Part shown: piece after piece, positions 12,880-51,509 of the stretch
Layout of the letters: every line of letters begins with the position of its first letter
Numbering within the stretch: the first letter of the stretch is position 1
Source: an uncultured Gammaproteobacteria bacterium
GTDB taxonomy: Bacteria > Patescibacteriota > Microgenomatia > Levybacterales > GWA1-39-11
Direction: 5' to 3'
Assembly: GCA_964641355.1 (NCBI GenBank)
Contig: CAZXND010000002.1
Span: 143,112-207,111, forward strand
Length of the DNA stretch: 64,000 bases
Notes under the pieces: model-generated
The model's database searches: none
What the model was told of the DNA's origin: nothing
What the model saw: the letters and a program-made list of their open reading frames with translations, nothing else
Program-made: the position numbers and the translations under genes

Positions 12880-13664
12880 ATTTCTATTCTATTCTTATTT
12901 AAAGATATTATATACGATACCGGATATCTAAGTGAAGAAAAGAAAGAAAACACGAATCCTTGCCATGAATCCATGAATCCTTTATGTCTTAAATATGTCA
13001 AAAAAAACCAGTATAATGGCCTTATTAACAAAAACTCAGGAACAGAGTACAATTTCAAAGGAAAAATTCTCTTCCTCATCATTTTCTGTATCTGATGTGC
13101 ATAAATATTATTGTATCTCTCCCATTTTTGCAAATAAACAGAAAAGTTTTTATAGGGATAATGGAGAAGAGGGTGGGATAAATAGCCAACGACACCATCT
13201 ACCACAGCTTGCTCATGAACATCTTTTTGCGGGAGTTTTCCTTTGCCATTTTTATATAAACGGAGTGTATAGTCAGGATATTGACCACCTTTCATAAGGA
13301 ATCTACCAAGGAAAAAGTTTTTTCTCGGAATCCAATATCCACTCTCTTCTCTTACCTCATCATTAATTACTCGAATAATTTCGTCTTTCAGCTCTTTAGA
13401 AACTCTCTCGTCTGCATCAAGCTGCAATATCCAATCAGAGGTAGCTTTATCAATAGCTTTTTGTTTATTGATGTGAAATATCTCTTGATTGGGTAATATA
13501 CTAACTATTGCCCCATAGCTCCTCGCAATTTCTACAGTCTTGTCATTCGATTCTCCATCAACTAAAACTATTTCAGACACCCATCCCTCAACAGAATCGA
13601 GTGTTCTGCCAATACTTGCCTCTTCGTTGTATGTTGCTAAAACAACACTTATTGTTTTCTTCAA
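12876..13664 (-). CDS. family 2 glycosyltransferase (paralog of 43497..44399 and 37881..38615)
   Basis: ISVVLATYNEE...VLVDGESNDKT...QLDADE. C-terminal block QYPDYTLRLYKNGKGKLPQKDVHE is shared with 43497..44399 (WYPDYQLRLFKNGSGKFPEKHVHE). Confidence 0.7.
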   Translation of the reverse strand: MKKTISVVLATYNEEASIGRTLDSVEGWVSEIVLVDGESNDKTVEIARSYGAIVSILPNQEIFHINKQKAIDKATSDWILQLDADERVSKELKDEIIRVINDEVREESGYWIPRKNFFLGRFLMKGGQYPDYTLRLYKNGKGKLPQKDVHEQAVVDGVVGYLSHPLLHYPYKNFSVYLQKWERYNNIYAHQIQKMMRKRIFPLKLYSVPEFLLIRPLYWFFLTYLRHKGFMDSWQGFVFSFFSSLRYPVSYIISLNKNRIEI

Positions 13665-15319
13665 GGCTTAACCTCTCCTATTATTATAGCTTGTTTGTTT
13701 GTAGGAAATTCAACACTTTTAACAAGAACTAAAGGACTTTTAAATTCAGACGGGTTTAAAACATAAAGAACCTCTTTTTCGAATTTTATCGGTTTTTCAA
13801 AATAATATTTTCCAATTTTATGTGTTTCTGCAAATCCACCTGACCTTGTTCCTCCTGACATTTGATAGTTCATTGGATCTACTTTTCTTGAAAATAAATA
13901 AAACATATAACTCTCTAGTAGGCTTTCTCTGTTAGAAACTACAATTTTATTGTATTTATCTTCATTTTTTTTAGCAAAGGCAATCGCCTGCAACAGTCCA
14001 TATTGAAACTGATGAGCAGAATTATTTCTAAAAATATTAAAATAACTGTATGAAAAAAATAGAACATATGAACAAATTACCAATGCGAAAACCCCTATAA
14101 TCAGATTTCTTATTAACATGCTCATTTTTAACAAATAAGAAACAGCTACGATTATTCCATATGATTCAACTATTTGAGGCAAAGGTAAAATCTGAATTAC
14201 CCTCATGGCATGAGGATAACCGTTTGTTATAGCCCCAGGAACCAACGATGAAAGCAACCAGAACAAAAAGAAAAGTTTTATTTTATTATCGAAATCTTTT
14301 CTTGTTATCAAAAAAAATGCACCAAAGAGAATTATCACTAATTCAAATGGATAAAACAATCCAAAGTTTGGAACTTTAAAGATCTCATCTCCGGTATTTG
14401 TAAATAACCAGAATGGGTTAAAATGTGACATATACGCTGAGAAGATTAGACCTCCATACATAACCCTCCTGTTGTACATCACTTGGCCAAAAAAATCATT
14501 TTTACTTTTCGCCTCTAAAACCTTAACGGCACTATTACTTAAAAGCTGAGGATTTGAAGATAATATATTTGTACCTGAAAATCTAATAAGCGCTCCTGGT
14601 TTTAATGTTTCAACAATCACTGGCAACACTATAATTAATCCCAAAAAAATGCTTAAGGTTAAATTTTTTTTATTTCTGGTTAAAGACTTAATAAATATTG
14701 ACGCAATAATAAGCGAAATAAGAGGGATAAAGATTTTTCCACTTTGATAAGAATCGAAAGAAAGAGCCATAAAAGCAGCAGAAAGTGGTAAAAATATAAT
14801 TGACCCTCTCTTTGACCCTAAAATAAATTTGAAAAAAAATGTAAGACCTAGAATAAAAAAAGAGAGAAATGCATTTACTTCGTGTCCTAACCTAGAAATA
14901 TAAATATGCCAAGGGGAAATCGCCAACAAGAACATTACTAAAAACGGTAGAGCTGAGATAAAACGTAACGATAACTTTGAAATAAAACAATCAACGAGAA
15001 AGTAAACAGAAATTACACTTATTATCGATAAAATTACCGACGGTAGTCTTACGGCTAAAGCACTTAAACCTAAAAACTTAACGAATGGAATAACTAAGTA
15101 GACATATAAGGCAGGTCTATAATCATCATACGCCCTTAGCAACACTGGAAAAGAACTAAGATACTCATCTTTCCCTGTTAATAATATTGAATATGCATTG
15201 TAACCAATCGAAACCTCATCAAGGCTTGGATGTGACGGAATATTGCCCAATTCATAAAATCTAAAAAAAATTGCAATCGAGAGGATTGTTAAAAAAATAA
15301 TTTTTTTCACTTTTTCCAC
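13661..15319 (-). CDS. GT-C family A (PMT_2/ArnT-like, GT39/GT83-type) membrane glycosyltransferase, paralog 1
   Basis: 552 aa polytopic. Loop-1 motif LDEVSIGYNAYSILLTGKDEY, later ISPWHIYISRLGHE and VPHAMRVIQILP. The same three motifs are conserved in 7 paralogs. Confidence 0.65.
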   Translation of the reverse strand: MEKVKKIIFLTILSIAIFFRFYELGNIPSHPSLDEVSIGYNAYSILLTGKDEYLSSFPVLLRAYDDYRPALYVYLVIPFVKFLGLSALAVRLPSVILSIISVISVYFLVDCFISKLSLRFISALPFLVMFLLAISPWHIYISRLGHEVNAFLSFFILGLTFFFKFILGSKRGSIIFLPLSAAFMALSFDSYQSGKIFIPLISLIIASIFIKSLTRNKKNLTLSIFLGLIIVLPVIVETLKPGALIRFSGTNILSSNPQLLSNSAVKVLEAKSKNDFFGQVMYNRRVMYGGLIFSAYMSHFNPFWLFTNTGDEIFKVPNFGLFYPFELVIILFGAFFLITRKDFDNKIKLFFLFWLLSSLVPGAITNGYPHAMRVIQILPLPQIVESYGIIVAVSYLLKMSMLIRNLIIGVFALVICSYVLFFSYSYFNIFRNNSAHQFQYGLLQAIAFAKKNEDKYNKIVVSNRESLLESYMFYLFSRKVDPMNYQMSGGTRSGGFAETHKIGKYYFEKPIKFEKEVLYVLNPSEFKSPLVLVKSVEFPTNKQAIIIGEVKP

Positions 15320-16590
15320 CTCTTTTCATAAATATAATGAATATAAGATTCAGGCGCTCCATAAAGGAAATCATTTTTAATACCTCTATTTACCTCTATC
15401 CTCACTTCCTTCCTATATTCAGACAAACCCTTTGTTTTGTAGGAAAAAAAAGCCGAAATATTTATCGCTAAAAAGTAACTAATAACCAAAATAAAAATAA
15501 CTTTTGGCAAGATGTTTTTTAACCTCCATAGCTTCATTAAAAAATAAGACAATACAAATATAGCTATAAACCTAGTACTTGAAAAGAAGTAATTAGAAAT
15601 ATCTCCCTTATAAGTTGCGATTACCACCCAAGGGACTACAAACCAAAGCACAACTAAAAAAACAAAAATTAATCTATCTCTATTAAATTTTTCTCTAAGA
15701 TATGTTAGCGAGAAAAACGGAACCACCAATATTGAAACAATCTGAGGTATATTAAAACGAGTTAAACCTGAAAATTCAATAAATGCATCACCCGATAATT
15801 GAATCATCCTTCTTAAGTGTAATCCGTGATAATTACTGGATAAAAAAGAAAAAACATTGACACCACTTTTAGAATTAAGTGATGAAATTATATTTGGAAT
15901 TAAAAAAACAAAAAAAATGGGAATTGCTAATAGTATATATTTAAGCGTTTTAACTTTAAATGGAATAAGTGGTAAACAGAATAATAATATTACAAAATAA
16001 AAAACAGATGTAGTATGGATATGCAGAGAAACTCCAAGTAAAACAGCTAAAACCAAAATCTTACTTACATCTCCAAGTAATATTCTATATATAAAATAAA
16101 AGATTAGTAATGATATCGATGCAATAAATCCGACTGGCCATTGTGTTCGTTCAAAGCTTATATTGTAAAACGATATACTTTGAATTAATAAAGCAGTTAA
16201 AGCTACTTTAGAATCGAATAACTTTTTCGTTATAGAGAATAAAACAAGAAGCGAGAACAATGCCGTTACTAGTGCTGCGATTGGAGACGCAATTGGGTCT
16301 AAATTTGTAACCAGATAGAAAAAGGCAATGAAGTAATAATATAGAGGTCCAATAAATATTCCCGTTCCCTGCCTAGCTTGCATACCAACAAGAGGGTATT
16401 CTTTATTAACTAAAATATTCTTTGACACCCATGCATTATCAACTTGATCCCATCCAAAAGAGTGATTTGATTCAAATTTATACACACGAAAGAAAATAAA
16501 CACAAGAAGTATTGTCAAAAAAACAATTAACTCTTTTTTACTATTAAAATTTATACCAAAAAATTTAAAAATCTTGTTAATCTTTTTCAT
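15307..16590 (-). CDS. polytopic membrane protein, ArnT/GT83-like candidate
   Basis: 427 aa. TM1, then FGWDQVDNAWVSKNILVNKEYPLVGMQARQGTGIFIGPLYYY loop, about 11 TM helices. Confidence 0.45.
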   Translation of the reverse strand: MKKINKIFKFFGINFNSKKELIVFLTILLVFIFFRVYKFESNHSFGWDQVDNAWVSKNILVNKEYPLVGMQARQGTGIFIGPLYYYFIAFFYLVTNLDPIASPIAALVTALFSLLVLFSITKKLFDSKVALTALLIQSISFYNISFERTQWPVGFIASISLLIFYFIYRILLGDVSKILVLAVLLGVSLHIHTTSVFYFVILLFCLPLIPFKVKTLKYILLAIPIFFVFLIPNIISSLNSKSGVNVFSFLSSNYHGLHLRRMIQLSGDAFIEFSGLTRFNIPQIVSILVVPFFSLTYLREKFNRDRLIFVFLVVLWFVVPWVVIATYKGDISNYFFSSTRFIAIFVLSYFLMKLWRLKNILPKVIFILVISYFLAINISAFFSYKTKGLSEYRKEVRIEVNRGIKNDFLYGAPESYIHYIYEKRWKK

Positions 16591-16615
16591 TAATATTTAA
16601 TATATGTGAGCTATC

Positions 16616-18280
16616 CTATCCCTCTACAATAATAATTGCAGGTTTCCCATCTAAATAATTTACGGTTTTTAGTATTTTTACACCATCTGGAAAATCGCCA
16701 GGCCTACCGATAAAAAGCTTATTCTCTTTATTCTCATTATTCCAATCAATATTTCTAAAAACATAGTTTGCAAACCCTTTATGATCTTCCGCAAATCCTC
16801 CACTAACCGTTCCTCCATTTTTTTGATATATATCAGGTGGATATTTTAAATAAAACAGGAAAAACATATACGACTGGTCAAGTGGCCTAACATTGCTGAC
16901 AACTACTTCTCTATATCTATTTTGAATAGGATACACAAAAGAGACTACTTTTTCATACCCGTATTGCCAATCTGAAGAATTAAAATAATTCAACTGAATA
17001 AAGTACTGATTGAGAAAATAAACAAAATTAAAGAGAAATAAAATAGAAAATATACTTATAAATGTGTACCTATATACAACTTTTTGCTTCAAAGCCCAAA
17101 TAAAACTAGATAGAATTCCTAATGCAATAAAGATTTGAATAACAGGTAAAAAATTAAGAGTTCTTACAGCATGAGGGACTCCACTAGTAATAGACGCCGG
17201 AAGAGGTGCTATTAAAAAATATGAAAAAATTACAGTTTTTATTTTTAGATTAAATCTCCCGAAAATCAAGATATAAATTCCCAATAATAGAAACGGGAGT
17301 TCAATTAAATATAGTAAACCCATAAATGGAGCGTGATGTCTGGATATATCTCCCGTGATAAACAACCAATTAATATCGAAATGAGAAATATAACCTGAAA
17401 CTATAGCCCTACCGTATTCAATTCTTCTATTGTCCAGAACTAAACCTAAAAGATTTTCCGTTTTCTTATCCTCTGCTGATTTAATAACGTTTCTTTTAAG
17501 AAATTGGGTTTGATCTGAAAAAACACTAACCCCTTTTGCTCTTAAAAGTGCATTTTTATCCGTAATCGTATAATGAACCATTGGAAAAACAATTATGGAT
17601 ATTAACACAAATGATATAAGCAAATATTTTTTAGGAATTGATAATATAGTCTTCCAGTACAGAAGCAAAAGAATTAAAAACAAAATAACAGTAAATACTT
17701 TCTCGCTTTGATACATATAGATATTTATGGACGCAAAGAAAAAAGAAATAGGTAAGATCTTTGGAACCTTTAGTCCTTTTAAAAAAAAGAGCAAAGCAAG
17801 AACATTTAGTGCGGCGCCAACATTTGATTCAAAAGCAATTCTGGAAAAATTAATACTCCAAGGAGAAATCGCCAATATAAACGAAGCTATAAGTGCTAAA
17901 TAATCTGCTTTTACTGTTTTTTTTGAAATCTCTATTTCCTTCCCAAAAAGCTCTTTGATGAGAAAAAAGACTGCAATGACTGTAATTATTCCAAAAATTG
18001 CAGAAACCAATCTAACAGAAACGATATTCAATCCAAACACTTTTATAAAAGGGATTGCGAAATATGCATAAAGTGCAGGCTTGTAATCATCAAAAGATCT
18101 AAGGGCGACAGGAAAAATCTTTCCATATTCATCCTTACCAGTAAGAAGTAGTGAATAAGCGTTGTATCCAAGAGCCGCTTCGTCCCAATCAGGAGAGGGA
18201 GGAACACTCCCAATGTTCCAAAGTCTCAGAATAGAGGCAATTATAATTATACCTATAAGGATTAACCAAATCTTCTTCAT
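16616..18280 (-). CDS. GT-C family A (PMT/ArnT-like) paralog 2
   Basis: PDWDEAALGYNAYSLLLTGKDEYGK; ISPWSINFSRIAFE; VPHAVRTLNFLP; 554 aa. Confidence 0.65.
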   Translation of the reverse strand: MKKIWLILIGIIIIASILRLWNIGSVPPSPDWDEAALGYNAYSLLLTGKDEYGKIFPVALRSFDDYKPALYAYFAIPFIKVFGLNIVSVRLVSAIFGIITVIAVFFLIKELFGKEIEISKKTVKADYLALIASFILAISPWSINFSRIAFESNVGAALNVLALLFFLKGLKVPKILPISFFFASINIYMYQSEKVFTVILFLILLLLYWKTILSIPKKYLLISFVLISIIVFPMVHYTITDKNALLRAKGVSVFSDQTQFLKRNVIKSAEDKKTENLLGLVLDNRRIEYGRAIVSGYISHFDINWLFITGDISRHHAPFMGLLYLIELPFLLLGIYILIFGRFNLKIKTVIFSYFLIAPLPASITSGVPHAVRTLNFLPVIQIFIALGILSSFIWALKQKVVYRYTFISIFSILFLFNFVYFLNQYFIQLNYFNSSDWQYGYEKVVSFVYPIQNRYREVVVSNVRPLDQSYMFFLFYLKYPPDIYQKNGGTVSGGFAEDHKGFANYVFRNIDWNNENKENKLFIGRPGDFPDGVKILKTVNYLDGKPAIIIVEG

Positions 18281-19911
18281 CTTATATAAGCAGATAAAAT
18301 CTCCTGTCCATTAGGTAAAAAGAATGATTTCACCTTCTCTGACCCATTTGGAACTCTTGAAGGACTATCAATTACTAAAATTTTTCCCATTCCTTTCCTA
18401 TCTAACACAAGTTTACCCTTGTCAAAGAAAACGTATTTTCCAAAACTTTCGATATGGACAAAACCAGCAGCTTCTCTTTCTACTCTGGCCTCTGATCTGA
18501 ACATACTTGGATCGTATTTTTTATAAAAAAGAACGTAGATATAAGGTCTACCCAACTCTGTTGTAATGTAAACTCTATCATATTTTTTTTCTACGTTATT
18601 AACATAATCAATTACCTCTTTATACCCAAACTGCCATTCTCCGGCAAACTCATTGGGATAATGATCCATAAGGTTATGGTAAAAATAAGTAAAATTGATC
18701 AAGATTACACTCGAAACCAAAAAAATAAAAACTTTTTTAATCTGGAAGGTACCTAAATTTATATTGTTAAGTAATTTTGTTAATTGATAAATTCCATACG
18801 CAGATAAAACTTGGAATGTTGGAAGGGCCGCTTCGATACGAAGAGCATGGGGAGTTTCCCTAGCAGTTCCTGCAGGAATCAATCCAATAACTAACCAATA
18901 AGGAATAATTAACCACTTTCCCTCTCTCCTTCTGAAGAGGAAAAGAACACCTGATACAAAAAACGGAATTTCCCAGATGTACATCTCTCCAACATCCTGA
19001 ATTGAAAACTTTGGATTACCATCTCCCTTAATGAATAAGAACTGAGGATTTAAATTATCGAAATAGTGATGGAGGAACTCCACCCCATAAGCAAATCTTC
19101 TGTTGTGGATCATCTTAGACCACAAGGAATTTTTATCATTTTCAATTTCCCTATTAGCTCTCTCTACTACATTTGGGTCAGAAAATATATTCACTTCGGT
19201 AAATCTAAGCTGTGCCTGAGGGGTTAAAAGAAACATGGCTAAAGGTATAAATAATAAAAACGCAAGAAAAGCTGAAATAGTAGTCTCTGTTTTACGATTA
19301 ATTAAATTTTTTCTATAGAAAAAAAATAAACCTAAAACAAGAAGAGGAGAAACTATTCTTGAAGTGTTAAATGTATACATTGACAAAACAAAAGAGGTTA
19401 AAGAAAAAAATAGATATCCCTTTCTTTCCATACCAGCTAAAAAAAGATATACGCCAAACACAATAAAAAAGGATGCTAAATTAGCTTCAAACGCTGCTCT
19501 TGAGAGCATGATGTGCCAAGGTGAAATGGCAAGTAAAAATGACGAAAGCAAGGCAATATCTTTATTCTCAAATATCTTCTTTATTAATAAGTATGTTATT
19601 AGAACAGTGAGTACTCCAAAAAATGCCGAGATAAATCTTACTGAAAATCCGTTAAGCCCGAATAACCTAATGGGAATTATTGAAAGATATGCATAAAGAG
19701 GGGGCTTAAAGTCTCCAAAAGATTCAAGATATGATATGGGAAGAAATTTACCAAATTCATCCTTAAAGTCGATTCCTAAACTGTACGCGTTATATCCCCA
19801 GGCTACTTCATCCCACGTTAAAGAGGGAGGGTTTTTATCCAAATCCTGGAATCGAAGAAAAAAAGCCGCAATCAAAACAAGAATTAATATGTATTTTTTA
19901 AAAAACGACAT
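18277..19911 (-). CDS. GT-C family A (PMT/ArnT-like) paralog 3
   Basis: LTWDEVAWGYNAYSLGIDFKDEFGK; ISPWHIMLSRAAFE; TPHALRIEAALP; 4-bp overlap with paralog 2 (tandem pair). Confidence 0.65.
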   Translation of the reverse strand: MSFFKKYILILVLIAAFFLRFQDLDKNPPSLTWDEVAWGYNAYSLGIDFKDEFGKFLPISYLESFGDFKPPLYAYLSIIPIRLFGLNGFSVRFISAFFGVLTVLITYLLIKKIFENKDIALLSSFLLAISPWHIMLSRAAFEANLASFFIVFGVYLFLAGMERKGYLFFSLTSFVLSMYTFNTSRIVSPLLVLGLFFFYRKNLINRKTETTISAFLAFLLFIPLAMFLLTPQAQLRFTEVNIFSDPNVVERANREIENDKNSLWSKMIHNRRFAYGVEFLHHYFDNLNPQFLFIKGDGNPKFSIQDVGEMYIWEIPFFVSGVLFLFRRREGKWLIIPYWLVIGLIPAGTARETPHALRIEAALPTFQVLSAYGIYQLTKLLNNINLGTFQIKKVFIFLVSSVILINFTYFYHNLMDHYPNEFAGEWQFGYKEVIDYVNNVEKKYDRVYITTELGRPYIYVLFYKKYDPSMFRSEARVEREAAGFVHIESFGKYVFFDKGKLVLDRKGMGKILVIDSPSRVPNGSEKVKSFFLPNGQEILSAYIR

Positions 19912-19953
19912 TTATGTTAATATCCGATATAATTGAATTATAGTTAAATCCTC

Positions 19954-21747
19954 GTGAAAATTAAATACACCTCTCTCAAAAAAATAAAGATCTCGACAAG
20001 GTCAGTATTTTTATTTTTAGGAGTCCTCTTTTTAGCCATGCTGTTCAGAGTCACCTTCACAAATCTTATTGAATTTAAGGGAGACGAGGCACTACTCTTA
20101 CTCCTCTCAACAAGACCTATGTATTCAAACTTCTTTGCACAAACAGGAACTGTTTCAAGCGTTGCTATAGCCAACCCACCACTTATTAATTACCTTCTTT
20201 TCCCTTTCGTCACATTTTCCCGAAATCCAGATACAGTTTCATTTTTTATAGGAGTTATAAATTCTCTTGCAATTGTTCTTTTCTTTTTTACTATCAAAAA
20301 ATACCATAAAGAAAGAACAGCCGTATTTTCTACCATACTTCTTTGTCTTTCTCCATGGGCAATCATATATTCTAGAAAAATATGGAATCCTGATTTTATT
20401 CTACCGCTATTCGTGATATTATTTTTTAGCGTTCATAAAATCGTTAAAGAAAAAAGAAACGATTATTGGATAGTATATATAGTTTTTTCTCTTTTTCTCG
20501 TTCAGATTCACCTTATAAACTTAATCTTTATATTCTTCCTCACCCTCTTAATATTAAAAGACAATAGACCTAAAGCAAGAAATATTATTCTAGGATTATT
20601 TGTAGGACTACTCCCGATAATTCCTTATATTATTTTTGAAATTAATAACAATTGCCCAGATTGTAAATCATTTATTGAGTCTAGAGCTAGACTTACAACT
20701 AATTTTAGTCCTCAACTTTTACTTAAACCTTTTCAGATTACTGGAATTAGTGGCTTTGATTTTTTGATCGGAAATAAATTCACAAATTTAACAAAAATTA
20801 ATCTTATTTCAAAAATCTTATTGCTTTTCTATCCGTTGCTAATTTCTGGAGTATTCCTATTCTATAAAGAAAATAAAAAATATAGAGTATTCGTATATGC
20901 AACTTTTCTAACTCCCATATTCTATTTTTTATTAAGAATAGAGAATTTAATGCATTATTTTATTATTCTTCTTCCTATAATCTATCTAATAGTCGGTTAT
21001 TTATTCTCATTTTTAACTACTCATAAAATCAAATATGTTAGATCTCTGGGTTATTCGCTATTTTTTGTAGTCATAATTTGTTACACGGCTCTTAATATAC
21101 AGTTATTCGTTTATTTATCCCGTAATACAAATATAGAAGGTGACTACGGATCAATATTCTCTTACACCAAAGCTCAAAACCTTAAGATACTGTCAAAATA
21201 CAGAAAGGATATACACTTTGAAGAAATGTTTTTGTTTTCATACGTTCCCCGTTTTATTTTTCAAGGAGATTATCCCATGGCCAAGGTTTTTTATGATAGA
21301 GAAAAAACAAAAAATAATCTTTCAAATCTGGAAAATAGACTGATGAAAATTCCCGAAGACAACAGAATAATCACAGAATTAATTTCTTACTATTCACCAA
21401 ATATCCCAACTATAGATAAAATTATTTTCTTAAGGGGTAGGTCTAAATTTATTCCAGGATATTATCAAATTTACAATGAACTCTACTATGGTAGTTATCT
21501 TCTCAGGGGTCATAAAAAGGAACTTAGAAGTAAAAATCTAGGAATTTCTTTTGCTTACCCCGAACATTGGAATGTCAAAGAAGATGAAAAATATATATCA
21601 GTTTACGGGGATGATAATTATCTTAAAATATCAACAACTCCTGTTAGCACAAAGTCTAAGAAAATAAATGGCCAAGATATTTATTTTACATATAAGAAAG
21701 GTACCAAGGTAATTTCGGAAATTATTAAATCATTAAAAGAATACTAA
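19954..21747 (+). CDS. polytopic membrane protein with GT-C-like DE loop; only large plus-strand gene in the cluster
   Basis: 597 aa, GTG start per the ORF track. TM1, then NLIEFKGDEALLLLLSTRP; many TM helices, then a soluble C-terminal domain. Its 3' end overlaps the convergent 21744..23372 stop by 4 bp. Confidence 0.5.
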   Translation: MKIKYTSLKKIKISTRSVFLFLGVLFLAMLFRVTFTNLIEFKGDEALLLLLSTRPMYSNFFAQTGTVSSVAIANPPLINYLLFPFVTFSRNPDTVSFFIGVINSLAIVLFFFTIKKYHKERTAVFSTILLCLSPWAIIYSRKIWNPDFILPLFVILFFSVHKIVKEKRNDYWIVYIVFSLFLVQIHLINLIFIFFLTLLILKDNRPKARNIILGLFVGLLPIIPYIIFEINNNCPDCKSFIESRARLTTNFSPQLLLKPFQITGISGFDFLIGNKFTNLTKINLISKILLLFYPLLISGVFLFYKENKKYRVFVYATFLTPIFYFLLRIENLMHYFIILLPIIYLIVGYLFSFLTTHKIKYVRSLGYSLFFVVIICYTALNIQLFVYLSRNTNIEGDYGSIFSYTKAQNLKILSKYRKDIHFEEMFLFSYVPRFIFQGDYPMAKVFYDREKTKNNLSNLENRLMKIPEDNRIITELISYYSPNIPTIDKIIFLRGRSKFIPGYYQIYNELYYGSYLLRGHKKELRSKNLGISFAYPEHWNVKEDEKYISVYGDDNYLKISTTPVSTKSKKINGQDIYFTYKKGTKVISEIIKSLKEY

Positions 21748-25086: not shown

Positions 25087-25095
25087 CTATAAAGA

Positions 25096-37595: not shown

Positions 37596-37652
37596 ACGTT
37601 TATTTTAACAACTATTGAATAGCAATAAAAGTTATGTTAAATTCAATAAGTT

Positions 37653-37877
37653 ATGAATCTTTCGCCAGATACAAATATCTTAATCTTCCTTCTACTAATT
37701 TGGTCAACAGGGGTAAAAGGTGTAGCTTTGTGGAGAGCAGCTAGATTAGACCAAAGAAATTGGTTTATAGTAATGCTTCTTGTTAATATTTTTGGGATTC
37801 TAGAGATAATATATTTATTTAAATTCGCAAAAAAGAAACTGACCCTCAAAGAACTTAGATCATGGTTCTCCAAATGA
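37653..37877 (+). CDS. small two-TM membrane protein (74 aa), unknown function
   Basis: ORF fills most of the only large intergenic gap (285 bp) in the cluster. Two clear hydrophobic helices flanking a WRAARLDQRNW loop. A competing minus-strand ORF (37643..37873) has no recognisable features. Confidence 0.4.
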   Translation: MNLSPDTNILIFLLLIWSTGVKGVALWRAARLDQRNWFIVMLLVNIFGILEIIYLFKFAKKKLTLKELRSWFSK

Positions 37878-37880
37878 TAT

Positions 37881-38615: not shown

Positions 38616-38622
38616 AATTTAA

Positions 38623-43491: not shown

Positions 43492-43496
43492 TTAAA

Positions 43497-44399: not shown

Positions 44400-45850
44400 T
44401 CTTTAATTGACCGTTTCACAAAGGTAAGAGTTTTTAGTAAATCATCTTTTGCTATCGCAAATAAAATTATACCGTAAAAAGTACCAGCAACAACTACCCA
44501 TAAAAGAAGAATATAAATATTAGTTAGAATCCCTCTAGTAAGCAAAATAAAGATACCCATAAGAAGAGCAGCAAAAAACTGCCTACCCACAGGTTTTATC
44601 AATGAAAATTCTACATGTTTCCTAGCAATTAGAATAACAAAGACTGAAGAGAGAGAAATTAAAAATGAAGCAAATGCTACGCCGTTATATCCTATTTTTT
44701 GTATAAAAAAGAAGGTTGCTATCCAAGTTGATATCGTCCAAAAAATCATAAAATTTAAAGTTGTTTTTACCTTTCCTATAGCATTAAGGAAATTTGTGAG
44801 AGGGGTTGAAATGGAAGAAAAAACTGTGTTTAAAGCAAAAAATGTCAAAGATAAAAGAGCAGGCTCCCATTTTTGATACCTCGGGATATATTCAATAAAA
44901 TACGGAGAAAGCAATATTATTCCAACTGCAGCGGGAAAAATAACAGAAGAAACTAGAAAAAGAGACTTCTCAATTGCAAGTCTAAGAGCGCTCTTATCAT
45001 GCTGAAGTCTACTATAAGAAGGGAATGTTATCCTAATTACGTTATCCATCACAAGCCTAAGTGGCATGAATGCCCATTTTTGAGAAAATCCTATAAATCC
45101 CACCTGAGAAAGCGGTAGGACCTTTCCAATATATACATTAAGCAAATCATCTTTAAACAATGCCAGAATACTATTGGTTTGAAATGGAATTCCAAATGTA
45201 AGCAATCTCTTCAAGACGCCTCTATCAAACGAGACTCCAATTTCCCAAGGTTGGATCCAATAAATTACAACTAAACCAAGAAAACTTCTAGCAAGCACTG
45301 CTATTGTAAAACTTGTTATACCAAAACCCGTCACCGCAAAAAATATAAGACAAAGATTGTAAATTAAATTTTCGGCAATTTCGGGTACAACAAGTTTATT
45401 AAAATCTAGTTTTCTTTCAAGAATTATTGTGGGAATAGTCTTTAGCGATGAAGCAAAAAATGAAATTAATAATGCATTGAACAAAATTATTCCAGAATTA
45501 TTCAAATGATAAAAATGACCAATTTTAGACGAAAAAACTGCTGCTGGAACAATCAATGATAATACTAATATTTGTTGGATTGTAAAAGTTGTTCTTAAGT
45601 CTTTTACTGTTGGCTCTTCTTTCATCTGAATAAGAGACGCCGCCAAACCAATATCTTGAAAATAGTTAAGAAATACAACTATTGAAGAAACAACAAAAAA
45701 GATTCCAAAACTCTTAGGGTCAAGAAAAATTGTTAAAACCAGGCTAGCAATTACAGAAAGAATTTGTATTAAAAAGGTCCTTGAAACCAAAGCAAATACA
45801 CCCTTAACCGACTTTTTTGCAATTAGCTCTAATTCTAATTCTTCTTCCAT
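44396..45850 (-). CDS. MOP-superfamily oligosaccharide flippase (Wzx-like), second copy
   Basis: 484 aa, about 12-14 TM helices, 4-bp overlap with the upstream GT2. Confidence 0.55.
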   Translation of the reverse strand: MEEELELELIAKKSVKGVFALVSRTFLIQILSVIASLVLTIFLDPKSFGIFFVVSSIVVFLNYFQDIGLAASLIQMKEEPTVKDLRTTFTIQQILVLSLIVPAAVFSSKIGHFYHLNNSGIILFNALLISFFASSLKTIPTIILERKLDFNKLVVPEIAENLIYNLCLIFFAVTGFGITSFTIAVLARSFLGLVVIYWIQPWEIGVSFDRGVLKRLLTFGIPFQTNSILALFKDDLLNVYIGKVLPLSQVGFIGFSQKWAFMPLRLVMDNVIRITFPSYSRLQHDKSALRLAIEKSLFLVSSVIFPAAVGIILLSPYFIEYIPRYQKWEPALLSLTFFALNTVFSSISTPLTNFLNAIGKVKTTLNFMIFWTISTWIATFFFIQKIGYNGVAFASFLISLSSVFVILIARKHVEFSLIKPVGRQFFAALLMGIFILLTRGILTNIYILLLWVVVAGTFYGIILFAIAKDDLLKTLTFVKRSIKE

Positions 45851-45876
45851 GAATATCCAACGCTTAGTGTGTACCT

Positions 45877-46617
45877 TTAAAATCTTTTATTCTTCAAGTC
45901 CCACCAGAGAATAAAACTTTCAAGTACCGCCCTAATAATTACAGGGATATTTCCTCCGCTTTGATTGCCAAACTTACGAGGCAAGTGATTTACCTCGACT
46001 TGAGCGATCTTAAGTTTTTTTCTCTTTGCTTTAGCTAAAATTTCTGTTGTAATCATTGCCCCTTCAGATCTTAATGGCATTATCTCTTTTACTGCGTGTT
46101 GAGTAAACATCTTAAAACCACAATCGATATCTTTAAAATAAAAACCGAAAAATATAAAATCCCACACCTTCAACATGTTCATTAATAGGTGCCGAACAAG
46201 ATTGTCTTTTCTACTACTTCTAAAACCTATTACCATATCGTTGGTTTTTATTTTATCAATAAACTTTATGACTTCTGAGAAATCGAATTGACCATCACCA
46301 TCATTAAAGACTATGTATTTATAGGAAGAATTATTAAAACCTTCTTTTAGAGCAGCCCCGTAACCTCTGTTTGGACTATGTGAAATCACCTTTAGATTTT
46401 TGTTCTTTTTCTCCCATTCAATTGCCTTTTTAAGCGTCCCGTCGCTTGAACCATCGTCTATCAGGACTATCTCCCACTTATTTGCGATTTTATCGGCAAC
46501 TACGATCGCCTTTCCAACAACTTCATCTATATTTTTTTCCTCATTCCAAAATGGAAAAAAGATGGATAGTTCAGATAATTTTCCCGGCATTAGCTTATTC
46601 TCCTTAAAAAAGGCCAT
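45877..46617 (-). CDS. GT2, DPM1/GtrB-like polyprenyl-phosphate sugar synthase
   Basis: LSIFFPFWNEEKNI...IVLIDDGSSDGT...NRGYGAALKEGF...VFNDGDGQFD...DIDCGFKMF. Confidence 0.65.
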   Translation of the reverse strand: MAFFKENKLMPGKLSELSIFFPFWNEEKNIDEVVGKAIVVADKIANKWEIVLIDDGSSDGTLKKAIEWEKKNKNLKVISHSPNRGYGAALKEGFNNSSYKYIVFNDGDGQFDFSEVIKFIDKIKTNDMVIGFRSSRKDNLVRHLLMNMLKVWDFIFFGFYFKDIDCGFKMFTQHAVKEIMPLRSEGAMITTEILAKAKRKKLKIAQVEVNHLPRKFGNQSGGNIPVIIRAVLESFILWWDLKNKRF

Positions 46618-48281
46618 CTAATTATACCAATAATAATTGTTAAAATAGTAACTAAAGAAATTAAATTAGATATATTTTCCAAAAGCGTTTGTCTAATCTT
46701 TAAAGAGATATTATAACTTCCATTCGTTAAATCAACATAAAGTCCATCATTTTTTATTTTAAAAGTTGTGTTTCTATCATTAACCTTCAAATCCCAAGAA
46801 TGAGAAGGAGTTCTATTTATTCGTATAGTTGCATTATCTTCCAAATTAATTACCCCACTTACACCTATCTTGTCCTCTTGCTTAATTTTAAGCTGAGCTT
46901 CTCCAGAAACAATTTCTATAGGGTTTTTCGGTATTTGATGCTCTGAATTAGGTTTTATAAAATTTTTTGGTAAATATTCATCAGATATTTTTGAAACATT
47001 CCAAAGAAGATAAGAGTTATTTGTGTAATAGTTTACATCCTTTAAATACAAAAATTGAGGCGTAAATAATTTACTATTATTATAGATAGTTAACCCAATG
47101 ACTAAAACCGTTAAGGCAAAGATCAAAAATCTACTTTTAATAAACCAGAAAGCCTCTACAAATATAAAACCTACAATTACTGAGACGAATAAAGAAGTGA
47201 AATTTAAGAATCTCCAAGGATACTGAAGAAAAGAAGCAAATGGAATTGTTCGCCATATTATTTCCGAAACAGAGGACATCATAAAAATAGAAATGAACAG
47301 AGAAAATATAGAAAAAACAACGAACATATTTTTTCGAGTTTCGTTGAACTTTATTAACGATATGACTAGAGAAAGAATTACTAGTGCAATATTCAATTTT
47401 CCAAGCCTAAAGCTCATTCCATCAATGCAACCTGGCGCAGAACCTCCAAAACCCCAAGTACTTTCCCAAAATTGACTCAAGCATACAAAATGGTCTTTAA
47501 AATTTGCTCCTCCACCTATTTGAGAACTGAGGTTAGTACTGGACGACTCAAAAACCGCAGGTAAAGAATAAAAGGATGATGCCAAAAGTCCCCCAATACA
47601 TGCAGCAGAGACAAGAACTAGATATTTCTTCTTCTTTTTCGTATAGAATACAGAAATAGCTACAAAGATTAACAAAAAGAATAAAAGCATAAAAGACGTG
47701 AGATTATGAGATATTATTACCAAAAAAAGGAAGATTGAAGTAATCAAACTCCATCTCACATTGTGGGTTTTAAAAATCTTCATCATTCCGAAAAATACAA
47801 GCGGAATAAACGAATATGCCCAAAGCTCATCCAAATCCCCTCTAACATAAATATTAAGGGCATGATATGGGAAATATAGATACACAACGGATGATACTAT
47901 TCCAGAAAGAGTGCCGAATAAGTCTTTTACTAGAATAAACATCGACATTCCAGACAATATAATTGCTAAAATAAAAACTAGCTTGGTAGAAATAAGCGCA
48001 TTAAATCCTAAAATATTTAGTATTCCACCAATATAGTATGGGAAGGGAGAATAGAAATTAAAAATTGGGTAACCATAACCATATCCCAAATCCTCAACCC
48101 ATCTTACAGGGAATACACCCCTTTTTAACTCTTTCCCCATTTCATAAACTCTTGCTACCTGCGTATCATCATGGATTGAAAAAAAACCTTTTTGAAAAAA
48201 GGGTAAAAAAGTGATAACACTTATTATTAAAATAAGAAAAAAAGCCAAATATAACTTGTACGTATTATTGATAAATCTCAT
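46590..48281 (-). CDS. polytopic membrane protein family C, paralog 3 (tandem with 48278..49846)
   Basis: FSIHDDTQVARVYEMGKELKRGVFPVRWVEDLGYGYGYPIFNFYSPFP; 563 aa; the C-terminal domain lacks the YFPGW block found in the other paralogs. Confidence 0.55.
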   Translation of the reverse strand: MRFINNTYKLYLAFFLILIISVITFLPFFQKGFFSIHDDTQVARVYEMGKELKRGVFPVRWVEDLGYGYGYPIFNFYSPFPYYIGGILNILGFNALISTKLVFILAIILSGMSMFILVKDLFGTLSGIVSSVVYLYFPYHALNIYVRGDLDELWAYSFIPLVFFGMMKIFKTHNVRWSLITSIFLFLVIISHNLTSFMLLFFLLIFVAISVFYTKKKKKYLVLVSAACIGGLLASSFYSLPAVFESSSTNLSSQIGGGANFKDHFVCLSQFWESTWGFGGSAPGCIDGMSFRLGKLNIALVILSLVISLIKFNETRKNMFVVFSIFSLFISIFMMSSVSEIIWRTIPFASFLQYPWRFLNFTSLFVSVIVGFIFVEAFWFIKSRFLIFALTVLVIGLTIYNNSKLFTPQFLYLKDVNYYTNNSYLLWNVSKISDEYLPKNFIKPNSEHQIPKNPIEIVSGEAQLKIKQEDKIGVSGVINLEDNATIRINRTPSHSWDLKVNDRNTTFKIKNDGLYVDLTNGSYNISLKIRQTLLENISNLISLVTILTIIIGIIRWPFLRRIS

Positions 48282-49846
48282 TTTTTCCCAAAATTGCTTT
48301 TTAAGCTTAGACCGATCAAAAAAAGAAAAGATAATAGAGTAATCAAATCGCTTATTAACCTGACCGGAGTTTCAATAAATTTTATCACAATACTGTTTAT
48401 TCCTGGAGGTATTTTAAACTCAATTAATCCTAAATCATTTTGGTAATTAATCTTAGTATTCTTATCATTTACTCGAACTATCCACCCTGGAAAATAGATT
48501 ATATTTATTCTAATGCTTACAGGGGTCTCAGAAGAACTTCTAAAACTTATTAGGTTTTGATTTATAAATAAATTTGATATATGTGAATCGCCATTTAAAA
48601 TTTCTATTTTATCTTTATAATGACTATTCACCCTACGCTTTGACCAAATTGGCATATATTCATCTCTTACTGTTGTTGTCCCTTCATTCGTTGAATAGAA
48701 TCCTTCCTCTTTACCAAAAAACTCTTTTGGAAATACGTATCTAATTGATGAAATTAAAGTTAAAATAATTAAAAATATTCCCAGAATTAATAAATATTTT
48801 TTTTGAAAACGAGAAATCACAAAAGAAGTTAGAAATGCCATAGATATAATTGTTAGAGACAAAAACCTAAAGGGAAATTGAACAAATTCAACAGGAATCA
48901 CATTCCACAAAAATGAGCTCATTTTTATCGATAGGAATAAAGAGATAATGCTAAAAGCCAAAAACAAGATTGTCATTTTATTTTTACCTAATAAGTTTCT
49001 GCTCCAAAAAACTTGAAGTGCCGCGATTAACAAAATAAAAAGAGTTGAAATACCAATAATATCTAATCCCGCAAAATAACTCTTCCAATCAGAAACTGAA
49101 GTCTGATAAAAAATCGTATATTTTAAATCATAAATTGCTGGAAGAATAAAAAAACACGATAGGCCAAACCCTAAAATAAGAGATCCTGCAAACTTAATTA
49201 TTAACGGTCTCCTCTCGTTGCTATGTAAAACAGATAATAAAAGGTAGAAAAATAAAAGAAATAAAAATATGATCGACAACGTATTGTGTGAAAGAATCAA
49301 GAAGAATATTCCCAAACTAATCCAAAAAACACTTCTTCTTTCTACTTGCCAGAGAATAAATGGAATCACTGCAAAAGCAAAACACTCACCTATCGACCCG
49401 CGTTTTGTCAAATCATATAAATGATATGGTGCGTAGATATAATATAAGCTTCCAAAAAATGCTGGGATATCCTGAAACTTTCTTCTTAACCATAAAAAAG
49501 AAAAAACTCCTGATCCGAACATCGAAGAAATAAATATAATTTTTACTGAATCAACGAAATTGAATCCTAAAAGGTGTAATGGTGTAGCAATATACATGAA
49601 TCCTGGATAGAGAAAATTTGCGACGGGATAACCATAACCATAGTTGAGTCTTGACAAAAATCTGACCGGAAATTGACCGTCACGAAGAACTTGGAAAAAT
49701 GCAGAGAAACGAATAACCATCCACTCACCATCGTCACTTAAAAAGTACCCGGGTTTTATTAAAAATAGAACTGATGGAACAGTTAATAAAATCAAAAGAA
49801 GAAATAATCTTTGTTTTTTAATTAGATTCAACCACCACATATGCAT
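48278..49846 (-). CDS. polytopic membrane protein family C, paralog 4
   Basis: YFLSDDGEWMVIRFSAFFQVLRDGQFPVRFLSRLNYGYGYPVANFLYPG; C-terminal IYFPGWIVRVNDK. The ORF track extends to 49939 (122-bp overlap with the upstream gene). Start moved to the internal MHMWW Met at 49846. Confidence 0.55.
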   Translation of the reverse strand: MHMWWLNLIKKQRLFLLLILLTVPSVLFLIKPGYFLSDDGEWMVIRFSAFFQVLRDGQFPVRFLSRLNYGYGYPVANFLYPGFMYIATPLHLLGFNFVDSVKIIFISSMFGSGVFSFLWLRRKFQDIPAFFGSLYYIYAPYHLYDLTKRGSIGECFAFAVIPFILWQVERRSVFWISLGIFFLILSHNTLSIIFLFLLFFYLLLSVLHSNERRPLIIKFAGSLILGFGLSCFFILPAIYDLKYTIFYQTSVSDWKSYFAGLDIIGISTLFILLIAALQVFWSRNLLGKNKMTILFLAFSIISLFLSIKMSSFLWNVIPVEFVQFPFRFLSLTIISMAFLTSFVISRFQKKYLLILGIFLIILTLISSIRYVFPKEFFGKEEGFYSTNEGTTTVRDEYMPIWSKRRVNSHYKDKIEILNGDSHISNLFINQNLISFRSSSETPVSIRINIIYFPGWIVRVNDKNTKINYQNDLGLIEFKIPPGINSIVIKFIETPVRLISDLITLLSFLFLIGLSLKSNFGKK

Positions 49847-51509
49847 TATCCGTAACTGGATATTCAAAAATCTTCTCTTTATCAGAGATGACAACAGGTC
49901 TTTGTGGAAAATCAAATGTAGCAAGAGTGTTAATCTCACGAGGTTTGTTTTCTTGATTCGTTACAATGAGTACTCCCTTTTTAAGGTCTTTTGTCCAATC
50001 AATATCCTTAAACTCATATTTTCCGAATGATTTTATCTCAGAAAAACCTTCAGAATCATCAGAAGCTCTTACAGAGGCGGTTTGAAAATTTTTTGGATCG
50101 TATTTATTGTAAAAGAGTAATGAGCTATAAATGAATCCTGATTTCTTGTCAAAAATTATTTTTTCATAACTGCTTTGATTGTTTTTTATAAACTCAGAAA
50201 GATTTTTATCTTCTTCCCTCCAGGCCTTTGCGTAAGCTATTGGAAATCTTACATAATAGGAAGTGAAATAATAAATTAAATTGTAAGTAAATATTAAAGA
50301 AATAACGACAATAGAAATTTTTCCCAAAAGTTTCAGATTAAGGAGATAATTCCAAATCGAAAGAATCCCTGCAGCCGAAAATATAGCAAGCGGAATAACT
50401 AGAAAAAAACTTCTAGTTGCATGTGGAGTCTCACGAGTTAACGCTGCGACTAAAACCACCAACACCGCCCATGATATAAGTAACTTTATCCATTTTGCTT
50501 TTACTTTGATAAGATGAATAATTCCCCAAGGTATAAACAAAAACTCAATTAAATAGAACTGACCCACATTTCCAATACCGTGATTACCATGATTAGATCC
50601 AGAAATAAAGAAAAATTGAGCAGAAAAGTAAGATGCAATATTGTTCAGATACTTCCAAACGATGGAAACATCAATACTAAAAAAAAGTTTTGAAAACCAA
50701 ACAGGATATGTAGCAAGATAACTTTTAAATTCTAATAAAGGCGCTTTTATTGAAGCGCTAGTTGTAATTAATGTTCCAGAAGCAGAATTAACACCTCCAC
50801 CCGAAAAAAAGGTAAAAATAAAAGGTAGAATTAACAAAAAAGAAGAAATAACTGTCACAGTCTTCCATTCTTTAGGAATTTTCGCTATATCATCTTTTTT
50901 ATAAAACAAAAAAATAACTAACAATAAAGGAGAAAGAAGTCTTGTAAGATTGTAGGTATACAAGTTTATTAAAAACAAAATTACTCCTAAAATAAAAAGG
51001 ACAAACTTTTTTTTCTCTATAGAATATAAAAATAACAGCCCACCAAATAGATACAGAAATAAAGCCACACTTACTTCGAACGTCGCCCGGTTATAATGTA
51101 GAGTCCACGGATTAACTGCGAAAAGAAAAGATGATACAAGAGATAAATTTTCATTTTTTGTGAGTTGTTTAACAAAAAAATATAGAATGATTACTGATAA
51201 AAATCCGCAAAAAGCAGAAGGAAATCTTACTGCAAAGGCAGTTATTCCAAATACAGCTTCAGAAAAAACGGTTGCATAGATATAGATTGGATGCTTCCAG
51301 TCTCCAAATGACTTAAAATACAAAGGGGAATTTTTACCATACTCATCCTTTCCAGTTTTAAGAATTGAATAGGCGTTATATCCTATTGCAGTTTCATCTT
51401 GATACAAACCAGTTGGTACTTCTCCAAGCTGATAAAACCGTAGAATAAATGCAAGAAGAATAATTCCAATAAAAATATATTTCCTAAAGTTCATATTTCC
51501 ACAAAACAA
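49818..51509 (-). CDS. GT-C family A (PMT/ArnT-like) paralog 7
   Basis: LYQDETAIGYNAYSILKTGKDEYGK; VNPWTLHYNRATFE; TPHATRSFFLVIP. Confidence 0.65.
   Translation of the reverse strand: MFCGNMNFRKYIFIGIILLAFILRFYQLGEVPTGLYQDETAIGYNAYSILKTGKDEYGKNSPLYFKSFGDWKHPIYIYATVFSEAVFGITAFAVRFPSAFCGFLSVIILYFFVKQLTKNENLSLVSSFLFAVNPWTLHYNRATFEVSVALFLYLFGGLLFLYSIEKKKFVLFILGVILFLINLYTYNLTRLLSPLLLVIFLFYKKDDIAKIPKEWKTVTVISSFLLILPFIFTFFSGGGVNSASGTLITTSASIKAPLLEFKSYLATYPVWFSKLFFSIDVSIVWKYLNNIASYFSAQFFFISGSNHGNHGIGNVGQFYLIEFLFIPWGIIHLIKVKAKWIKLLISWAVLVVLVAALTRETPHATRSFFLVIPLAIFSAAGILSIWNYLLNLKLLGKISIVVISLIFTYNLIYYFTSYYVRFPIAYAKAWREEDKNLSEFIKNNQSSYEKIIFDKKSGFIYSSLLFYNKYDPKNFQTASVRASDDSEGFSEIKSFGKYEFKDIDWTKDLKKGVLIVTNQENKPREINTLATFDFPQRPVVISDKEKIFEYPVTDNAYVVVESN

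Follow-up and report, generated by a model that had tools for sequence, protein, structure and literature searches.

The locus studied here raises the question of what seven related membrane proteins encoded within one gene array may do, and in what respect they differ from each other. The window, that is, the whole stretch of DNA that was analysed (64,000 nucleotides), comes from an uncultured Levybacteria-like bacterium of the candidate phyla radiation, and the seven genes lie within a 59-kb surface-glycan gene array. They were found as open reading frames of 542-572 aa, all on the minus strand, where a previous sequence-only reading had placed them: paralog 1 at 13661..15319 (552 aa), paralog 2 at 16616..18280 (554 aa), paralog 3 at 18277..19911 (544 aa; the protein used for the structure model), paralog 4 at 21744..23372 (542 aa), paralog 5 at 25096..26814 (572 aa), paralog 6 at 28652..30295 (547 aa) and paralog 7 at 49818..51509 (563 aa, counted from the TTG start of the longest ORF). 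The start of paralog 2 and the stop of paralog 3 share 4 nt, in agreement with the tandem pair proposed for these two genes.

That the seven arose by duplication and that the copies are not identical had also been proposed, and both points hold. All-against-all BLASTP aligned the proteins over nearly their full length, with 27-38% amino acid identity and E-values of 1e-29 to 1e-104. At the DNA level similarity was limited to short patches (24-200 nt at 70-92%); the genes are therefore not an assembly artefact. The probability that the repeats result from such an artefact, or that the genes are decaying pseudogene copies, is practically negligible, and nothing in its favour was found for the seven paralogs. 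All seven ORFs are intact and keep the invariant residues described below, independent MAGs carry orthologs in the same gene order, and the exact product sequences are present in NCBI for the five paralogs looked up, four of them also in independent Logan assemblies; along with the protein identities and the short DNA patches, these matches and syntenic orthologs refute that explanation.

The motif patterns described earlier were run as regular expressions on the seven paralogs, and three of their cores also on the 41 other ORFs of at least 150 aa in the window. All the seven proteins have the cores R, DE...GY[NQ].Y, PW and P[HN]..R without change. The pattern [SN]PW[HST][IL] is present in 7/7, but R[FL][YWQ]xL holds at the TM1 position in five (paralog 2 has RLWNI and paralog 4 RFHKL), the long DE...TG[KR]D[EM] pattern also in five, with paralogs 3 and 6 diverging past GY[NQ].Y, and [VTSQ]P[HN][AIL]xR[TVSIA] in six, paralog 1 carrying YPHAMRV. 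None of the 41 other ORFs matched DE...GY[NQ].Y, [SN]PW[HST][IL] or the P[HN]..R pattern as first described. The DE dyad (codons at 15215-15220, 18179-18184, 19807-19812, 23262-23267, 26665-26670, 30188-30193 and 51393-51398 in paralogs 1 to 7, respectively) is invariant in 126/126 aligned homologs as well. In the AF2 model of paralog 3 (pLDDT 94.9) it corresponds to residues 34-35, right after TM1 (helix 2-21), and opens the EL1 helix (33-48); as modelled, it is the acidic DxD/DE-type GT-C motif of the first extracytoplasmic loop. A motif similar to YFEKP, [DG][YFW][KR]P, was also identified in the seven paralogs, with Lys or Arg at the conserved position in six of them and Thr in paralog 5, and HMMER aligned D[FY]KP of the family to FEKP of ArnT (E 2e-3 to 1e-2). 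RYA and YFEKP are conserved motifs in the first periplasmic loop of ArnT (PMC5377068), where the Lys of YFEKP is essential (PMC5377068; PMC8698208).

The paralogs are members of a large uncharacterised protein family (around 6,900 clusters at 50% identity, E<=1e-30) already labelled generically in databases; its named matches are all from Patescibacteria and are annotated, for example, as "glycosyltransferase family 39 protein" (NCBI). The Pfam PMT_2 gathering threshold (PF13231, 26.1 bits) is passed by four of the seven (33.6-46.2 bits; 35.2, 40.8 and 33.6 for paralogs 2, 6 and 7), paralog 1 stays below it (18.6 bits), and paralogs 4 and 5 give no match; the sequence of paralog 4, searched by itself, has no Pfam match at all. 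Since the seven are clearly homologous to each other, the family would belong to PMT_2 by transitivity. Pfam PMT (PF02366, 22.7 bits) is passed only by paralog 3 (59.5 bits), with paralogs 6 and 7 slightly under the cut-off (21.1 and 22.4 bits) and no match for the other four. The DE dyad had been considered a signature of GT39 and GT83; its location directly after TM1 stands for all seven, but membership specifically in those families is not supported. The NCBIfam model for bacterial protein O-mannosyltransferase (Pmt, NF058602) gives 19.9 bits (cut-off 800) and that for ArnT (NF009784) 25.5 bits at best (cut-off 567), so that curated models support neither GT39, where paralog 3 is the only one to pass Pfam PMT, nor GT83. 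Nor is GT66 supported: its WWDYG motif, which lies within a sizeable C-terminal domain, is absent, and no window protein matches Pfam STT3. Sequence similarity to solved or characterised enzymes is marginal (ArnT E 2e-3, STT3 E 1e-3): among solved proteins, a deeper family profile (A2) and paralog 3 alone found only ArnT, the seven-sequence profile found STT3 as well, and with hhalign the family profile could not be aligned significantly to E. coli ArnT (probability 1%). When the model of paralog 3 was searched with Foldseek, the top matches were oligosaccharyltransferases and the best mutual TM-score was obtained with ArnT (5f15, 0.58/0.58); STT3 is structurally as close to the paralog as ArnT or PMT. 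The modelled fold is of the GT-C(A) class of the GT-C superfamily, common to STT3, ArnT, PMT and ALG enzymes.

With respect to how the paralogs differ, the C-terminal 150 aa or so had been described as highly divergent and as the place of diversification. This region does diverge more than the N-terminus (mean pairwise identity of 20-30% in alignment columns 481-632 versus 41-47% in columns 41-120), although the effect is modest, the globular domain comprises about 122 aa in the AF2 model (around 13664-14032 in paralog 1), and conservation is lowest in the large loop, at columns 241-320 (18-22%). The ratio of identity within orthogroups to that between paralogs is 1.8 for the C-terminal domain, below the large extracytoplasmic loop (0.55 vs 0.25, ratio 2.2) and the PHAxR loop (0.78 vs 0.39, ratio 2.0); paralog-specific constraint is therefore not at its strongest in this domain. 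For five of the seven, other Levybacteria carry separate orthologs (43-60% identity) with gene order conserved, and therefore the duplications are ancient rather than recent. Orthologs of paralog 1 are 43-45% identical (loci L003-L006 and L013), those of paralog 2 47-60% (12 loci), those of paralog 5 44-47% (L002, L003, L006, L007 and L012), and that of paralog 7 55%, with conserved neighbours (L015). No ortholog of paralog 4 was found in the sampled flanks; outside the 90% cluster to which it belongs, the nearest database protein shares 43% identity with it.

The array extends over 355..59028 on the minus strand, with 43 consecutive co-directional genes; at most junctions the neighbours overlap by 4-8 nt, which suggests co-expression. 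The seven are a true family but only a subset of what the array holds: it includes at least three distant PMT_2-like genes, one GT87-like gene (27419), five PTPS_related genes (8624, 40913, 46590, 48278 and 53829) and four YfhO genes (30298, 34321, 38623 and 51484), the last three groups all on the minus strand. A distant eighth family member (55450..56961, minus strand, 503 aa) has TDEAIY after TM1, scores 51.9 bits with PMT_2 and aligns to the family profile over 445 columns (hhalign probability 96.6%). The gene at 19954..21747 (plus strand, 597 aa, PMT_2 30.7 bits) is antiparallel within the array, as are its orthologs in L005 and L006, and the N-terminal half of its product is related to the paralog family (GDEALL after TM1; hhalign probability 93.9%). 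Between paralogs 1 and 2, a polytopic protein with weak PMT_2/EpsG similarity is encoded (15307..16590, minus strand, 427 aa), with orthologs of 40-44% identity in the same position. In total the window contains around 20 GT-C-like genes, two Wzx-like flippases (44396..45850, MOP/Wzx-type, and 6216..7535, Polysacc_synt, both on the minus strand) and four GT2 candidate polyprenyl-phosphate-sugar synthases, all on the minus strand and all scoring under equivalog cut-offs: 32679..33395 (AglJ/ArnC-like, 108 and 84 bits), 45877..46617 (ArnC/AglJ-like), 5396..6151 (PpgS/PgfS-like) and 58138..59028, the first gene of the array (PgfS/ArnC-like, with an N-terminal TM helix). The array encodes GT2 and GT4 enzymes, GalE, deoxysugar enzymes, SDR enzymes that modify sugars and one enzyme of the DegT family. 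Neither an initiating phosphoglycosyltransferase nor a GtrA-type flippase was identified in the window. Multi-component transmembrane glycosylation, where a PMT_2 GT-C works with a flippase and a C55-P-sugar synthase of the GT-A type, is a known design (PMC8035078), and at the level of family annotation the array would encode such a three-component system.

The interpretation we favour, with a probability of roughly 55%, is that the seven are GT-C enzymes that move single sugars from polyprenyl-phosphate sugars onto different positions of a surface glycan. The donor type, the catalytic residues and the acceptor that we infer fit together as follows. Each paralog, a polytopic protein with the GT-C(A) fold, would be a glycosyltransferase of the PMT_2 type (Pfam) that works on the outer side of the cytoplasmic membrane. 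Cytoplasmic GT2 enzymes of the array would charge polyprenyl phosphate with sugars, a flippase would carry the lipid-linked sugar over the membrane, and each paralog would then pass that single sugar to its acceptor. As catalytic or positioning acid we propose the Asp-Glu dyad that opens the first extracytoplasmic loop; the conserved Lys/Arg of [DG][YFW][KR]P, equivalent to YFEKP in ArnT, could hold the lipid phosphate together with the arginine of P[HN]..R. The putative donor and catalytic motifs are common to all seven, the large loop, the P[HN]..R loop and, to a lesser degree, the C-terminal domain are conserved within each orthologous lineage but vary among paralogs, and there are about four candidate synthases for some 20 GT-C enzymes. 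What sets the paralogs apart is therefore most likely the acceptor site or the linkage on a complex surface glycan, which might be a wall polysaccharide, a teichoic-acid-like polymer or a lipoglycan.

The same enzymes could instead be PMT-like (GT39) protein O-glycosyltransferases, transferring sugar from polyprenyl phosphate to Ser/Thr residues of proteins that are secreted or belong to the S-layer or pili, with paralogs differing in protein substrate or sugar. The Pfam PMT match of paralog 3 would fit a protein acceptor equally well, paralogs 6 and 7 come close to the PMT cut-off, the DE dyad is a hallmark motif of PMT (PMC8698208), and relatives bear the family 39 label. This alternative is possible but unlikely, given the score with the bacterial Pmt equivalog, the equal structural closeness of ArnT and STT3, and an array (Wzx flippases, GT4s, YfhO, PTPS_related, GT87-like) that resembles polysaccharide assembly. 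To our knowledge, characterised bacteria have one Pmt each, not seven. Besides, Gram-positive enzymes with a PMT_2 domain work on glycopolymers (PMC8035078). Closeness to ArnT in TM-score, profile searches, YFEKP-like motif (PMC5377068) and architecture, and the presence of DegT-family and SDR enzymes, could also be explained if the paralogs were ArnT-like enzymes that change the charge of the surface by adding a sugar, possibly an amino or deoxy one, to a membrane lipid or to the lipid part that anchors a lipoglycan. We consider this improbable: the ArnT equivalog and hhalign results are negative, the window lacks lipid A genes, the DegT-family gene is closer to RfbH than to ArnB, and a single lipid acceptor is hard to reconcile with seven conserved paralogs. 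As far as we know, Patescibacteria are generally held to be devoid of LPS.

The Foldseek ranking counts against our preferred explanation, since oligosaccharyltransferases use diphosphate-linked oligosaccharides and protein acceptors. A further alternative is en bloc transfer of a preassembled diphosphate-linked oligosaccharide by oligosaccharyltransferase-, ligase- or polymerase-like enzymes. Such activity seems very improbable here, since WWD/WWDYG is found in 0/7 paralogs and the Pfam signal is restricted to PMT_2/PMT and one weak Wzy_C match (17 bits, cut-off 31.7).

Returning to single-sugar transfer onto a surface glycan, the nearest analogies are serotype-specific Gtr proteins, PMT_2 enzymes decorating Gram-positive teichoic acids or rhamnan, and mycobacterial arabinogalactan GT-C enzymes. 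The Gram-positive GT-Cs (GtlB, GttB, YkcB, CsdD/CsdF, GtsC, GacL; PMC8035078) and Gtr (PMC11127046), compared by description, share with the paralogs the PMT_2 domain, GT2 polyprenyl-P-sugar synthases (here candidates) and flippases encoded alongside, and YfhO-type GT-Cs, and in those systems several GT-Cs may draw on one donor while acting on different acceptors or positions; however, they have 1-3 GT-Cs scattered over the genome instead of about 20 in one array, and the flippases here are Wzx-like and not GtrA-type. The mycobacterial set (EmbA/B/C, AftA-D, PimE) also comprises many GT-Cs acting serially outside the membrane on one glycan with decaprenyl-P sugars, and the GT87-like gene of this array corresponds to the PimE family. 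ArnT (GT83, Cupriavidus metallidurans, PDB 5EZM/5F15), a user of polyprenyl-monophosphate sugar, resembles the paralogs in size (around 550 aa), small C-terminal extracytoplasmic domain of alpha/beta type, acidic residue after TM1 and the [FY][EDK]KP of the first loop aligned by HMMER, but shares just 10-12% identity, has RYA where the paralogs have GY[NQ]xY, is encoded by one gene, and acts on lipid A, which is not expected in this organism. With GT39 (yeast Pmt1/2/4, actinobacterial Pmt) the paralogs share the DE dyad opening loop 1, but they lack a MIR domain, have an extra C-terminal alpha/beta domain and lie in a polysaccharide-type context. GT66 enzymes (STT3/AglB/PglB) are 13-18% identical and have a far larger C-terminal domain.

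More tentatively, and at less than even odds, the seven paralogs, together with some 13 GT-C genes from three other families in the array, could constitute a lineage-conserved extracytoplasmic assembly line that builds a complex Levybacteria surface glycan from lipid-linked single sugars, almost wholly on the outer side of the membrane; the paralog family would then deserve a CAZy GT family separate from GT39, GT83 and GT66. If so, an ultrasmall bacterium with a reduced genome would have arrived independently at a strategy in the style of mycobacterial arabinogalactan, and the glycan assembly line may take up several percent of that genome.

Seven open reading frames on the minus strand, beginning at positions 13661, 16616, 18277, 21744, 25096, 28652 and 49818 and coding for proteins of 542-572 residues, were present at the coordinates proposed in the sequence-only reading. 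In all-against-all BLASTP comparisons the seven proteins were linked at 27-38% identity over nearly their full length (E 1e-29 to 1e-104), and at the DNA level their similarity was limited to short patches, so they are not assembly duplicates; the earlier view that they arose by repeated duplication and are non-identical copies therefore holds. A MAFFT alignment of the seven contained 23 invariant columns, including R20, D34, E35, G39, Y40, Y43, P136, W137, R143, P369 and R373 (numbered as in the 13661 protein). The four motifs initially described as common to all were matched exactly, as regular expressions, by five, five, seven and six of the proteins, respectively, while the cores of the motifs were found in every one of them. 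Neither DE...GY[NQ].Y nor [SN]PW[HST][IL] nor the P[HN]..R pattern of that first description was matched by any of the other 41 window ORFs of at least 150 aa. Mean pairwise identity was highest in the N-terminal third (41-47%) and amounted to 20-30% in the final 150 alignment columns. The divergence previously attributed to the C-terminal part is thus real but modest, and the least conserved stretch of the seven is the large extracytoplasmic loop, with 18-22% identity.

By domain the seven proteins fall into the PMT_2 family, and their fold is GT-C(A). Pfam PMT_2 scored over its gathering threshold in four of them, no Pfam match was obtained for 21744 or 25096, and NCBIfam matches were weak and sub-threshold, as in the case of Agl23 (at most 35.8 bits for a cut-off of 126). 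The 18277 protein was modeled with AlphaFold2 on the basis of 126 homologs, with very high confidence (pLDDT 94.9, pTM 0.93). In this model TM1 comprises residues 2-21, D34-E35 is carried on an extracytoplasmic helix beginning at residue 33, and the helical bundle is followed by a large helical loop (approximately residues 230-311), later TM helices that reach approximately residue 421, and, at the C-terminus, an alpha/beta domain of some 122 residues.

In an exhaustive profile search, 6,920 representatives of 50%-identity clusters were retrieved at E<=1e-30, a number that rose to 36,023 at E<=1e-3. Those homologs that are named carry the labels 'glycosyltransferase family 39 protein', 'phospholipid carrier-dependent glycosyltransferase' or 'ArnT-like', and belong to Candidatus Levybacteria, Gottesmanbacteria, Microgenomates and Parcubacteria. 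A scan for related loci in other genomes, done with a single paralog as query and one genome per species, identified 17 loci, most of them in Levybacteria, the best identity to paralog 16616 being 59%. ORF calling and best matches in these loci, together with a neighbour-joining tree, assigned 13661, 16616, 18277, 25096 and 49818 their own orthologs, 43-60% identical and with order and neighbours kept. The duplications are therefore older than the split between these genomes and, judging from these comparisons, every copy has been retained since. Several of the loci (L002-L004, L006, L007, L011, L012 and L014) are in GTDB species-representative MAGs titled 'uncultured Gammaproteobacteria bacterium'. 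These loci carry the Levybacteria-type array, with orthologs 47-60% identical and in the same order, and their record titles consequently look like taxonomic mislabels.

Since synonymous sites are saturated among orthologs with 43-60% protein identity, domains were compared through identity within four orthologous groups and between groups, rather than through dN/dS. The ratio of both values was highest for the large extracytoplasmic loop (0.55 within, 0.25 between; 2.2) and the P[HN]..R loop (0.78 and 0.39; 2.0), followed by the C-terminal domain (0.47 and 0.26; 1.8) and the first extracytoplasmic loop (0.74 and 0.48; 1.5), which is conserved both inside and across groups. The C-terminal domain, formerly taken as the site where paralogs differ, does contribute to these differences, but less than the large loop and the P[HN]..R loop; lineage-specific constraint is concentrated in the extracytoplasmic loops and is only secondary in the C-terminal domain. 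The shared motifs, in turn, look like a common catalytic and donor-binding machinery.

The seven genes are a subset of around 20 encoding GT-C-like glycosyltransferases in a single 59-kb stretch. This array consists of 43 consecutive minus-strand genes, from 59028 down to 355, with 4-8 nt overlaps at most junctions, and its gene order is kept across Levybacteria genomes. The window has approximately 30% G+C and is 98% coding, and at least five TM segments were predicted, by a crude hydropathy count, in some two dozen of its 48 large ORFs. Strand bias is strong: all but three of the ORFs (at least 150 aa, or annotated small ones) are on the minus strand, and the GC skew stays negative along almost the whole window. 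This is reminiscent of the strand compositional disparity that has been reported for a Microgenomates genome sequenced to completion (PMC7143001). Scans for promoters and terminators yielded fewer matches than shuffled sequence did and were uninformative.

Other members of the array are related to the seven to different degrees. A full-length distant homolog is encoded at 55450-56961 (hhalign probability 96.6%), while 19954-21747, on the plus strand, codes for a PMT_2-like protein of 597 aa whose N-terminal half is related to them (93.9%). The latter gene is antiparallel within the otherwise co-directional array. It lies 42 nt from where 18277-19911 starts and shares 4 nt with 21744-23372, the two 3' ends overlapping. 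Its orthologs in two related loci, L005 (6017-7783) and L006 (3259-5010), are also antiparallel, so the inversion is conserved. The product of 15307-16590 is weakly PMT_2-like, and that of 27419-28645 is GT87-like. The 573-aa polytopic product of 23365-25086 (minus strand), which has PDEF directly after its first TM helix, was considered as a further family member and rejected (hhalign probability 0.2%); it has no Pfam or NCBIfam match and may be another divergent GT-C.

A second paralog family is formed by five minus-strand products of around 550 aa and 27-36% identity (8624-10294, 40913-42595, 46590-48281, 48278-49939 and 53829-55469), four of which match Pfam PTPS_related (PF10131), 53829 having no Pfam match of its own. 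This family, with its own orthologs in other Levybacteria loci, is probably also GT-C-like. With the longest-ORF starts, 48278-49939 overlaps 49818-51509 by 122 nt; given that paralog alignments begin around residues 40-60, the true start of the former is probably downstream of 49939. The third family comprises four YfhO-type membrane proteins of 736-804 aa and approximately 30-33% identity, encoded on the minus strand at 30298-32712, 34321-36531, 38623-40929 and 51484-53832. A paralogous pair, 10291-11400 and 56976-58145 (minus strand; 8-9 TM, 33% identity, E 7e-45, no Pfam match), has orthologs of both members in related Levybacteria loci and could correspond to Wzy-like polymerases or ligases. 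Four GT2 enzymes are similar to ArnC/AglJ/PpgS/PgfS-type synthases of polyprenyl-phosphate sugars, in every case under the equivalog cut-off, and two genes code for Wzx-like flippases. GalE scores over its cut-off, and a supply of deoxysugars is suggested by genes that resemble those for RfbH and CDP-glucose dehydratase. Between the GalE gene and the uncharacterized 8-TM protein, most related loci keep 11393-11911 (minus strand), whose 172-aa, single-TM product is DUF5667-like (22.7 bits, Pfam cut-off 27). The only sizeable gap of the minus-strand array (285 nt) is occupied on the opposite strand by 37653-37877, encoding 74 aa with two TM helices and DUF5652 (PF18893, E 1e-20).

Previous reports have described multi-component transmembrane glycosylation systems in which a GT-A makes a polyprenyl-P-sugar, a flippase exports it, and a GT-C, frequently a PMT_2 or YfhO protein, attaches the sugar to a polymer on the outer side of the membrane (PMC8035078, PMC11127046). 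Such systems occur in Gram-positives and in enterobacterial O-antigen modification, and the best-supported interpretation of our analysis is that the array would be a greatly expanded version of them. The approximately four candidate GT2 synthases would supply polyprenyl-P-sugar donors for the approximately 20 GT-Cs, the Wzx-like flippases would export the lipid-linked sugar, and the GT-C paralogs would add it to a polymer outside the membrane. From this proportion of donor synthases to GT-Cs, the invariant donor-side motifs and the paralog-specific conservation in extracytoplasmic loops, we infer that acceptor site or linkage is the main difference among the paralogs.

ArnT, PMT and STT3 are all at about the same distance from the family, whose members are predicted to work like ArnT/PMT/Gtr-type GT-C enzymes. 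A protein acceptor, as for PMT, is less likely than the reading above. Pfam PMT is over threshold for 18277, and the NCBIfam Pmt score of the seven (19.9 bits, cut-off 800) leaves them outside the curated bacterial Pmt model. They also fall outside that of ArnT (at most 25.5 bits, cut-off 567), and a lipid acceptor as in ArnT seems improbable. ArnT was the only hit of the 126-homolog profile among PDB sequences (E 2e-3), and in this marginal alignment D[FY]KP of the family was aligned onto the FEKP motif of ArnT, whose Lys is essential (PMC5377068, PMC8698208); the 7-sequence profile found STT3 and ArnT (E 1e-3 to 5e-3), both searches being too weak for mapping the DE dyad, and aligning the family profile to E. 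coli ArnT with hhalign gave a probability of 1%. En bloc transfer, as done by OST, appears more improbable still, since the WWD motif of that enzyme is missing from the seven and their C-terminal domain is small.

No paper was found in our literature searches on GT39/GT83-type enzymes in candidate-phyla-radiation bacteria, on GT-C glycosylation specifically in these bacteria or Levybacteria, or on this family or such arrays in Patescibacteria. The family is not new as annotation, its relatives being already labeled generically as GT39 in public databases; greater novelty lies in the array, which spans 59 kb, is conserved and dominated by GT-C genes, and belongs to a genome-reduced lineage. On these proteins, a label such as 'glycosyltransferase family 39' or 'ArnT-like' indicates fold and domain only, and should not be taken as protein mannosylation or lipid A modification. 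Being large, confidently folded and about as far from ArnT as from PMT and STT3, the seven-member family is a good candidate for a CAZy family of its own, once a member has been characterized. Attachment to host cells is the presumed lifestyle of candidate-phyla-radiation bacteria, whose surface chemistry has, to our knowledge, hardly been described; the array offers concrete enzyme targets in this respect. Its approximately 20 GT-C genes, with their conserved order, point to an elaborate surface glycan as a probable core trait of this lineage.
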